A DNA stretch of 21,537 bases, taken from a virus (taxonomy: Duplodnaviria > Heunggongvirae > Uroviricota > Caudoviricetes). Both the position numbers and the translations under genes were made by a program. Below the pieces are notes generated by a model. The model was not told the DNA's origin. It did not search any database and worked only from the letters and a program-made list of their open reading frames with translations. Shown here one piece after another: positions 15,104 through 16,582 of the stretch (position 1 is its first letter; each line of letters opens with the position of its first letter). The stretch covers positions 1-21,537 of the IMG/VR virus record IMGVR_UViG_648276671_000007, one strand, 5' to 3'.

Positions 15104-16582
15104 TTACGGCATGCTCATCAGCAGGTCTTCTTCCCCGCGCCCGGCAGTTCCGCCACCGGAAACCGTGCTGGCAGCATGCTGTGCCATAAAGCGATCGAAA
15201 AGTGTTTCCTGTGACGGTTGCGATGCCGCCGGTGCGGCTGCCAGCAGTGTTTTCGCCTGCGCCACCGTCATTCCTGGCTGTTCTGCCAGCGCCTGTGCGA
15301 ATTGCTCGCGCCCTTTCGCCTCCGGCAGCGCCATAATCTGATCGCTGGTACTTGCTGAACCAGCAACCGGTGCCGCTGCCAGTAACGTTTTCGCCTGCTC
15401 AACCGTCATTCCCGGCTGTTCAGCCAGCGCCTGCGCGAGTTGTTCGCGCCCCTGCGCCTCCGGCAGCGCCATAATCTGATCGCCTGTGCCTGCCGCACTG
15501 GCAACCGGTGCTGCCACCAGAAACGCTTTCGCCTGCTCAACCGTCATCCCCGGCTGACCTGCCAGCATCTGTGCCAGTTGCTCACGCCCCTTTGCCTCCT
15601 GACAATTCAGGATCCCCATCACGCGCTGATTTTCCTGGGCCACCGCTTCAGCAACGGTGAGATTTTTAACAGTCATTGCATTCTCCTTCGTAACAGAGTC
15701 ATTCAGTGCAGAAACCATCACTTCAACGGCATCTGCAGCATTAATCAGTTGATCAGCCAGGCCTGCATCAATGCCTGCCTGACCGTCATAAACGGCAGCC
15801 TCGGTATTCATCACCGCCTCTGAACTCAGCCCCGTATAACGTGCCACCTTGTCGACAAACATCCGGCGGGCCTCATCAATACGGCGCTGAAAATCTGCAC
15901 GCACACCTGCCGGCAATGCCTGAATACTGTTGCCGTCAACCTTGTGCTGCCCGGAGTAAATCAGCGTGATGTCCACCCCTTCCTGTGCCAGTTGCTTCTC
16001 GTAACTGGTGTGCGCCATCATCACGCCAATCGAACCAATTTTTGCCGTCTGCGTGACCAGCCGATGCGTACAGGCTGCCGCCAGCAACATGGCGGCTGAA
16101 CAGGCCATGTCATTACACAGCGCCCACACGGGCTTCTGTTCCCGCAGACGGTAAATCATGTCAGCACAGTCAAACGCCCCGGCGGCCTGCCCGCCCGGAC
16201 TGTCGATATCCAGCAAAATGCCGCGCACATCCGGATCATTCACCGCCATCTGAAGGCGGGCCGTCAGGCCGTCATAGCCGGTCATGCCGGAATAAGGCCG
16301 CAGGGTGCCCAGTTTATGCACCAGTGTGCCGCTCACCGGCAGAATGGCGATGCCATTCTTCACCTGGTAACTCTTTGCCGGACGCTGACCGCCCGCCATA
16401 TAGTCAGTCACCGCCAGCTGCATGCCGTCCGCATCAAGCTGAACAGCCTGCTGCGGAACGGCAAGGCTGCCTGCCCCCATCTCCCTGCCCAGCGCGCAAA
16501 AGAAAACCCGCGCATAGGCGGGCTCCAGTAAAAGCGGCTCATTAAATGCCATGGCGGCAATATGCGATAAATTACGACGCAT
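15104..16582 (-). CDS. C: Head maturation protease / scaffold, lambda gpC-like, with a Nu3-like scaffold region at the 3' end
   Basis: 492 aa; N-terminus MRRNLSHIAAMAFNEPLLLEPAYARVFF matches lambda gpC (RNLPHIASMAFNEPLMLEPAYARVFF); ClpP/S49-like core (SYQVKNGIAILPVSGTL...PYSGMTGY...); C-terminal VMGILNCQEAKGREQLAQ... like lambda C ...IMGILNCEEAHGREEQAR.... Confidence 0.95.
   Translation of the reverse strand: MRRNLSHIAAMAFNEPLLLEPAYARVFFCALGREMGAGSLAVPQQAVQLDADGMQLAVTDYMAGGQRPAKSYQVKNGIAILPVSGTLVHKLGTLRPYSGMTGYDGLTARLQMAVNDPDVRGILLDIDSPGGQAAGAFDCADMIYRLREQKPVWALCNDMACSAAMLLAAACTHRLVTQTAKIGSIGVMMAHTSYEKQLAQEGVDITLIYSGQHKVDGNSIQALPAGVRADFQRRIDEARRMFVDKVARYTGLSSEAVMNTEAAVYDGQAGIDAGLADQLINAADAVEVMVSALNDSVTKENAMTVKNLTVAEAVAQENQRVMGILNCQEAKGREQLAQMLAGQPGMTVEQAKAFLVAAPVASAAGTGDQIMALPEAQGREQLAQALAEQPGMTVEQAKTLLAAAPVAGSASTSDQIMALPEAKGREQFAQALAEQPGMTVAQAKTLLAAAPAASQPSQETLFDRFMAQHAASTVSGGGTAGRGEEDLLMSMP
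15217..15589 (-). repeat. In-frame 138-bp (46-aa) tandem repeat, about 2.7 copies, inside the scaffold part of gpC
   Basis: Protein units GREQLAQ(M/A)LA(G/E)QPGMTVEQAK(A/T)(F/L)L(V/A)AAPVA...DQIMALPEA(Q/K) start at residues 332, 378 and 424. At DNA level, ctccggcagcgccataatctgatcgc recurs at 15319 and 15457. Confidence 0.85.

Follow-up and report, generated by a model that had tools for sequence, protein, structure and literature searches.

The DNA analysed here is a stretch of 21,537 nucleotides (nt) of a tailed phage of the Caudoviricetes (IMG/VR record IMGVR_UViG_648276671_000007), hereafter the window, which comes from a draft scaffold of Escherichia coli TA280 (GL884362.1; GCA_000176655.2). 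Between a lambda-type portal gene and the D/E capsid genes, on the minus strand, lies a gene of the lambda gpC / phage 21 gp5 type, and within its C-terminal scaffold region a module of about 46 amino acids (aa) occurs three times in tandem. We regard it as very likely that the locus encodes a scaffold region of the phage 21 gp5/gp6 type with three copies of a helical module and a nested scaffold, in an allele which has lost one unit. The features of the gene are the following.

15104..16582, minus strand: gene of the gpC / phage 21 gp5 type, encoding an S49 prohead protease whose C-terminal part is a scaffold region (492 aa plus stop; translation of the open reading frame (ORF))
15713..16147, minus strand: S49 (SppA/ClpP-type) peptidase domain (aa 146-290, Pfam PF01343)
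15683..15688, minus strand: Shine-Dalgarno (SD) sequence AAGGAG of the putative internal start, 6 nt before the ATG and the sole 6-nt SD match within the gene (internal-start scan)
15104..15676, minus strand: nested in-frame ORF of a predicted Nu3/gp6-type scaffold (190 aa, co-terminal with the protease)
15614..15676, minus strand: predicted N-terminal helix of the scaffold (aa 303-323, MTVKNLTVAEAVAQENQRVMG; residues 2-24 of a 68-aa AlphaFold2 (AF2) model, predicted to pack on unit 1)
15594..15596, minus strand: approximate junction of the one-period (138-nt) difference from related alleles (gene nt ~987-989; MAFFT)
15476..15613, minus strand: repeat unit 1 (aa 324-369, ILNCQEAKGREQLAQMLAGQPGMTVEQAKAFLVAAPVASAAGTGDQ; 99 bits with a hidden Markov model (HMM) of the unit)
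15338..15475, minus strand: repeat unit 2 (aa 370-415), 88-89% identical in nt to its counterpart, unit 3 of four-copy alleles
15200..15337, minus strand: repeat unit 3 (aa 416-461), 93-96% identical in nt to its counterpart, unit 4 of four-copy alleles
15107..15199, minus strand: non-repeated C-terminal tail (aa 462-492, ...FDRFMAQH...LLMSMP), common to protease and scaffold

An earlier note, made from the letters of the window alone, had taken the gene for a homolog of lambda gpC, and this assignment was borne out by the lambda-type portal, D and E genes on its flanks and by a match to Peptidase_S49 (PF01343; 118.9 bits, cut-off 24.9, E=2.5e-34). The protein additionally matches phrog_53, 'head maturation protease', with E=5e-205. 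At the amino acid level it is 65% identical to phage 21 gp5, 62% to Gifsy-1 STM2605 and 50% to lambda C over aa 3-405, and it is named 'head-tail preconnector protein GP5 [E. coli TA280]' at NCBI. Ser162 and Lys214 align with Ser166 and Lys218 of lambda and lie in columns that are invariant across 75 homologs, and His191 likewise occupies invariant columns (alignments A1 and A3). From the alignment with lambda, in which Ser166 is said to be the nucleophile, Ser162 and Lys214 are the predicted catalytic pair. In the C-terminal tail, residues F462, M466 and P492 are invariant in alignment A3, and a helix at 458-469 is predicted by AF2 with low confidence. A candidate HU/IHF fold (Pfam Bac_DNA_binding) reached 18.1 bits against a cut-off of 22.4 over 25 residues, had no stretch passing alone and was dismissed as a chance helix similarity.

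The search for an internal start of the Nu3 type and its ribosome-binding site, as proposed in the earlier note, retrieved AAGGAG, a 6-nt spacer and an ATG at 15676-15674, which is codon 303 (Met303) of the protease gene. Unit 1 begins 20 codons downstream of this canonical signal and the nested product holds all three units, so that the repeats were correctly placed in the Nu3-like portion of the protein. The nested product matches phrog_8399, 'head scaffolding protein', in three stretches (E=4e-43), and a match to phrog_8940, 'capsid assembly protein', was found with E=1e-36. An equivalent AGGAGG with ATG is present at codon 302 in phage 21 and Gifsy-1 and at codon 309 in lambda, and the phage 21 site is the annotated start and ribosome-binding site of gene 6 (M81255). 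This pattern suggests that a 190-aa scaffold is expressed from the internal start in the window prophage as well. For lambda, the literature describes a nested product that is synthesised, occupies the prohead interior and is cleared by the protease; contacts of Nu3 with itself, with C and with E were reported, and incorporation of the portal B requires Nu3 (PMC3224144).

Two minor observations concern the nested genes of the reference phages. Lambda has only one strong SD with ATG that it shares with phage 21 gene 6, Gifsy-1 and the window, namely the one at C codon 309, and a start at this position would give 131 aa, which is the length of the phrog_8399 profile. In a newer phage 21 record (OL657228), two 'CII binding sites' (ttgynnnnnnttgy) are annotated within gene 6 at 1209-1222 and 1443-1456, one of them in the repeat region; these are probably mere pattern matches.

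The array itself was detected by Tandem Repeats Finder (TRF) at 15229-15599 with a period of 138 nt, 2.7 copies, 83% matches, zero indels and a score of 504. A repeat search placed in-register copies at 15229-15366, 15367-15504 and 15505-15642, with 100%, 85% and 62% identity to the reference copy. Read in the protein register of the minus strand, the full array extends over 15200-15613 and consists of three complete 46-aa units of 138 nt each (aa 324-461). The three in-register copies of the earlier note were therefore confirmed, whereas its count of 2.7 has to be replaced by three full units, and its coordinates (15217-15589) fall within the true array and stop short of both ends. Its description of the DNA copies as near-identical did not hold, as identity between them is 62-85%: pairwise values are 62-75% in the protein register and reach up to 85% in the TRF register. 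Self-identity at a lag of 138 nt over 15200-15613 was 0.743, and 1000 codon-preserving shuffles reached at most 0.484, whatever the lag. At the protein level, the units of the window each score 94-99 bits with the unit HMM.

Differences between units are commonest at the third codon position of the minus-strand frame (R1-R2: 10/6/18), and the repeats are therefore protein-coding in the frame of gpC. ORFs on the plus strand at 15111-15341 and 15440-15823 overlap the array, and coding on that strand was rejected in view of the same third-position bias. A search of the whole window against Rfam at gathering thresholds gave zero matches, and thus the repeat as an RNA element has no support.

Conservation within the unit is strong in the core, in which E6, A7, G9, R10, E11, A14, L17, A18, P21, M23, A28 and L32 are 90-100% conserved across units, and variation is concentrated in the linker tail. 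For structure prediction, the N-terminal helix and unit 1 were submitted to AF2 with a highly diverse alignment of 93 sequences. The resulting 68-aa model had a mean predicted local distance difference test (pLDDT) score of 87.6, with 95-96 in the core, and runs from a long helix through a short turn at EAKGRE into two short helices flanking the PGMT loop and then into a disordered tail rich in Ala, Pro and Ser. Units 2 and 3 show a similar succession of helices, with pLDDT 72-82, in the full-length model; this model is poor overall (mean pLDDT 55), too poor for the arrangement of the modules relative to each other or to the protease. The prediction for each module is accordingly a share in a small bundle of helices, with a flexible linker after it. 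Searches with the 190-aa scaffold gave nothing below E=0.066 among PDB sequences (phmmer), and Foldseek against PDB structures returned only generic helical-bundle similarity with E>=6.

Copies of the unit were counted with the unit HMM in 127 proteins, comprising the 120 best database homologs and references, all enterobacterial homologs. A single copy was present in two proteins of the lambda type, two copies in one protein of 449 aa, three in 79, four in 42 and five in three. Three-unit proteins measure 492-509 aa, four-unit proteins mostly 538 aa, and the five-unit proteins 568, 578 and 657 aa; one 610-aa fusion among the three-unit proteins has a truncated third unit. In a wider survey, a profile of 41 diverse units was run exhaustively against 1.84 billion representative proteins at E<=1e-3 and gave 987 matches. 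Among the best 150 of these 987 representatives, 131 carry a single unit, 14 two and four three. In full-length S49 proteins of ~400-550 aa the unit typically lies ~80 residues from the C-terminus, and it is also present in short products of ~110-170 aa. Since 131 of the best 150 representatives have one unit, the module is, from these comparisons, ancient and normally single-copy, and multi-copy arrays are a speciality of the enterobacterial phage 21/Gifsy lineage.

Within the sub-lineage of the window, several proteins point to a dynamic array with gains, losses and homogenisation of units. In P0030, P0038, P0040, P0041 and P0042, the units are near-identical within one protein and different between proteins, which is a signature of concerted evolution. 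Exact tandem duplicates of a 43-aa unit occur in P0003 and P0006, giving five units in total, units 1-2 of the phage 21 type are duplicated in P0044, and a chimeric unit with the head of unit 3 and the tail of unit 2 is found in P0049 and P0050. A search of the literature retrieved no paper on repeat-number variation in S49 protease/scaffold genes.

Outside the window, another E. coli homolog (P0043, 610 aa) is 95% identical to gpC of the window, breaks within unit 3 (…PGMTVIG) and runs into a 'phage baseplate assembly protein V' (NCBI name). The appearance is that of a misassembly or of a prophage deletion that has one of its ends within the array.

The triplication as such had been recorded long before. 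In the phage 21 record M81255 from the 1990s, gene 6 bears three features of the type repeat_region, which are named 'Tri1 box', 'Tri box' and 'Tri3 box' and are each labelled 'function unknown; putative'. They correspond to gp5 residues ~324-358, 371-407 and 418-455 and coincide with the units found by the HMM at 321-369, 371-410 and 418-452. The annotation reportedly dates from 1993 and is attributed to Smith and Feiss. In a four-way alignment, the window, phage 21 and Gifsy-1 each have three units. Lambda has one, at aa 364-406 of gpC, and the earlier note was right in giving lambda gpC a single copy. Its implied novelty of the triplication is contradicted by the Tri boxes and by the 79 of 127 homologs with three units, which make three the norm of the phage 21/Gifsy-1 branch. 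The question it raised, whether three copies are already usual in the lambda family, is thus answered with yes for this branch and with no for lambda itself. To this the present analysis adds the four units of the closest relatives, the footprint of a one-unit crossover and the concerted evolution of the array.

Of the known systems that come close, phage 21 shares with the window the gene order (portal, 5/6, shp/D, major capsid), an S49 protease with a nested in-frame scaffold (SD and ATG at codon 302 versus 303), three tandem modules at matching positions and the conserved C-terminal tail, at 65% aa identity over 100% of the length. Its DNA copies are too diverged for TRF and its units lie ~47-50 aa apart from start to start, whereas those of the window measure exactly 138 nt without indels and are 62-85% identical. 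Unit 1 of the window is clearly the counterpart of phage 21 unit 1 (ILxCQEAKG...MLAGQ), but units 2 and 3 of the window, which have 32 of 35 core residues in common, are closer to each other than to either unit 2 or unit 3 of phage 21, and unit 2 differs from the 'AAMPEMTVE' type of phage 21 unit 2; this is consistent with homogenisation or turnover. The two phages also differ in the tail, which is of the contractile P2 type in the window prophage and lambdoid in phage 21.

Gifsy-1 STM2605 and many Salmonella alleles of 496-509 aa likewise have three modules and an SD with ATG at codon 302, at 62-66% aa identity, but the Gifsy-1 units are diverged and its tail is of the siphovirus type. TRF found no DNA-level repeat in phage 21, lambda or Gifsy-1, so that the triplication of phage 21 and Gifsy-1 is visible at the protein level only. 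Lambda gpC/gpNu3 has the S49 domain, a scaffold nested in the same frame, the head-gene neighbourhood and the module (ILNCEEAHGREEQARVLAETPGMTV..ILAAAP) in common with the window; it differs by having one module, a ~36-aa insertion upstream of it, a different downstream segment and 439 instead of 492 aa. A further comparison is offered by P22 gp8, a largely flexible scaffold with a small helical coat-binding helix-turn-helix near its C-terminus. It might be a plausible model for how the module acts, as a functional analogue only, since gp8 has one such domain and no fused protease, and the PDB searches retrieved no sequence or structural match to it.

The nearest relatives of the window allele carry one unit more. 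The window protein falls into a 90%-identity cluster of 826 members, the representative of which (P0013, 538 aa) has four units. Of the 15 cluster members listed, 12 are 538 aa long. Two others are shorter, one of them being flagged partial, and a length of 492 aa is found in the window protein alone. Similarly, 25 of the 26 listed full-coverage matches in complete E. coli genomes (89-93% nt identity) span ~1617 bp, which is 1479 plus 138, and one listed complete-genome match, H80, spans 1479 bp. Four-unit alleles of 538 aa occur in E. coli, E. marmotae, Citrobacter and Salmonella (e.g. WP_089636892.1, ETEC1732); they belong to the same prophage type with the same 138-nt period and are 84-90% identical to the window in aa and ~93% in nt. 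By TRF, the array has 3.7 copies in ETEC1732 as well as in RM10740; in PapRG-04-4, with its three units, the count is 2.5.

Alignment by MAFFT with the four-unit alleles L004 and L006 and with L005 gave a single gap of 138 columns at about gene nt 988-1125, and the adjoining blocks are 97-100% identical in L004 and L006. The first ~18 nt of window unit 1 are identical to unit 1 of the four-unit alleles, whereas from nt ~20 onwards the unit tracks their unit 2 (~93%) and not their unit 1. Variants of the unit-1 body at unit nt 20, 23, 29 and 41 are common to L004, L006 and the three-copy L005, and the window is without them. Unit 1 of the window is therefore a chimera of the unit-1 head and the unit-2 body of four-unit alleles, and what the window lacks is their unit-1 body and unit-2 head. 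A clean 138-nt gap together with a chimeric unit is the signature of unequal crossover. As the simplest reading, a four-unit ancestor of the window allele would have lost one period through an unequal crossover, or a slippage event, that involved its units 1 and 2. The proposal in the earlier note that the array is a substrate for slippage or recombination was supported by these findings, that is, by relatives with 2-5 copies, by the difference of one clean period from four-copy alleles and by the chimeric junction unit.

Taken together, the gene would probably yield two products which share a C-terminus, a 492-aa S49 prohead protease and, on the model of lambda Nu3 and phage 21 gp6, a 190-aa scaffold. 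The scaffold would comprise the N-terminal helix, three modules on linkers rich in Ala, Pro, Ser and Gly, and the conserved tail. The shared region may carry both protease and scaffold into the procapsid, where the protease would later remove the scaffold; a region common to both products explains how the protease would be co-packaged. The modules might bind capsid protein or portal or associate with themselves, and the conserved module is an obvious candidate for one of the contacts reported for lambda Nu3. Three to five of them on flexible linkers would, hypothetically, form a multivalent scaffold. The ancestral and usually single module was multiplied in the enterobacterial phage 21/Gifsy lineage, and in the sub-lineage of the window, where there are 3 to 5 copies, the DNA copies most likely stay alike through continuing recombination. 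The window allele would derive from the common four-unit allele by loss of one unit in the manner described above.

Four points weigh against this account. The direction of the indel is derived from parsimony and not from a dated phylogeny, use of the internal start in the window prophage is deduced from the conservation of its SD and ATG, and the start of lambda nu3 itself differs between records (5132 with 201 aa in J02459 versus 5035 with 233 aa in OM418627). Finally, the exact 492-aa protein is recorded on one contig only, a draft scaffold, and a collapse from four to three units in the draft has to be considered, although with a very small probability.

The direction of the change could be the reverse, with the three-unit state of the window being ancestral, the four-unit alleles having arisen by duplication of unit 1 and the window being a relic. 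Three units are indeed commonest in the wider phage 21/Gifsy clade (79/127), unequal crossover gives gains as readily as losses, and exact recent duplications exist in P0003 and P0006. Nevertheless, the unit-1 body of the four-unit alleles shares derived sites with unit 1 of L005, which represents a separate three-unit lineage; this body therefore predates the split and is absent from the window. In addition, window unit 1 mixes two units which are found separate in the listed 538-aa cluster members, and a relic is accordingly judged unlikely. A wrong repeat number in the draft scaffold, either expanded from one unit or collapsed from four, is less probable still, and we give it little weight. 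In its favour are the draft status of the only contig with the exact protein, the four units of the nearest alleles, the chimeric unit 1 that a collapse of units 1 and 2 would likewise yield, and several partial or short cluster members which could reflect contigs ending in or near the gene. Expansion from one unit, as considered in the earlier note, is excluded, as the units differ at 25-38% of nt and the unit-1 body, unit 2 and unit 3 each have a distinct counterpart in finished genomes; moreover, the window allele has one unit fewer than its nearest relatives, the opposite of an expansion. Against a collapse speak the three-unit alleles that occur independently in Cronobacter (P0042), in a cluster of 196 members (P0039) and in one complete genome (PapRG-04-4, L005). 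Also, the identity between unit 1 and unit 2 in four-unit relatives is only 78%, whereas an assembler normally needs near-identical copies to collapse them.

As regards function, the repeats might be a neutral spacer, a low-complexity expansion forming a disordered linker of drifting length. The title of Medina et al. 2011 describes lambda gpNu3 as intrinsically disordered, copy number varies from 1 to 5 without obvious consequence, and the full-length AF2 model with its mean pLDDT of 55 would fit as well. A mere spacer is nonetheless improbable, because the unit core is 90-100% conserved even in very distant single-copy homologs, the differences between units prefer third codon positions, the helical bundle is predicted by AF2 with a confidently folded core (pLDDT 95-96), and variation falls mainly in the linker tail of each unit. 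At the other extreme, the copy number itself could be non-neutral: it would set an adjustable valency with which the scaffold engages capsid protein or portal, and the concerted evolution of the DNA repeats would keep this valency evolvable; we consider this a speculative and rather doubtful extension. If it were true, copy numbers would be selected together with their capsid or portal partners, or to escape host factors recognising scaffold or protease, and the series of three, four and five units in ~93% identical E. coli prophages would be a natural experiment locating the interaction domain of the scaffold.

For annotation, the gene is best taken as encoding two nested products, the protease and a predicted 190-aa scaffold, and its repeat as the known 'Tri box' architecture, neither an anomaly nor an assembly error. 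The module is single in most lineages, and enterobacterial prophages hold an actively recombining array of 2-5 copies. This allelic series is usable to test the binding partner of the module and the effect of valency on prohead assembly. The current view of phage assembly is unchanged by the finding.

The remaining genes of the window's head module, which is complete, of the lambda type and encoded throughout on the minus strand, are listed below.

20241-20786, minus strand: Nu1
18353-20305, minus strand: terminase A
18140-18349, minus strand: W
16572-18143, minus strand: portal, Phage_portal_2
14730-15065, minus strand: D-like decoration protein, HDPD
13633-14661, minus strand: E-like capsid protein, Phage_cap_E
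12815-13714, minus strand: FI/FII

The last of these combines an FI (Packaging_FI) and an FII-like (Phage_attach) domain in one minus-strand ORF. In the E. coli ETEC1732 relative, FI and FII are two genes, the first of which ends in …AEKIRE* and the second of which begins with MMFDNLF, whereas the window reads …AEKNGVMMFDNLF. The single ORF is either a natural in-frame fusion or a draft sequencing error.

The prophage as a whole (792-20786) is a mosaic, in which the lambda-type head (Nu1, A, W, B, C/Nu3, D, E, FI/FII) is joined directly to a contractile tail of the P2 type with gp25/W, J, I, a fibre, two tail-fibre assembly genes, sheath, tube, chaperone, U, X and D. Its nearest sequenced phage sheaths, those of Hafnia phage yong2 and Citrobacter phage Chris1, are only ~60% identical. 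The two tail-fibre assembly genes (Caudo_TAP; 6734-7264 and 7282-7848) follow one another and, like the fibre gene at 7827-9083 upstream of them, lie on the minus strand. A further minus-strand ORF (window 1-~760), located downstream of the P2 gpD-like gene, runs off the left end, and TRF periods of 54/18 nt at 1-155 reflect a collagen-like Gly-X-Y array at this edge; the ORF probably encodes a collagen-like tail-fibre or side-fibre protein.

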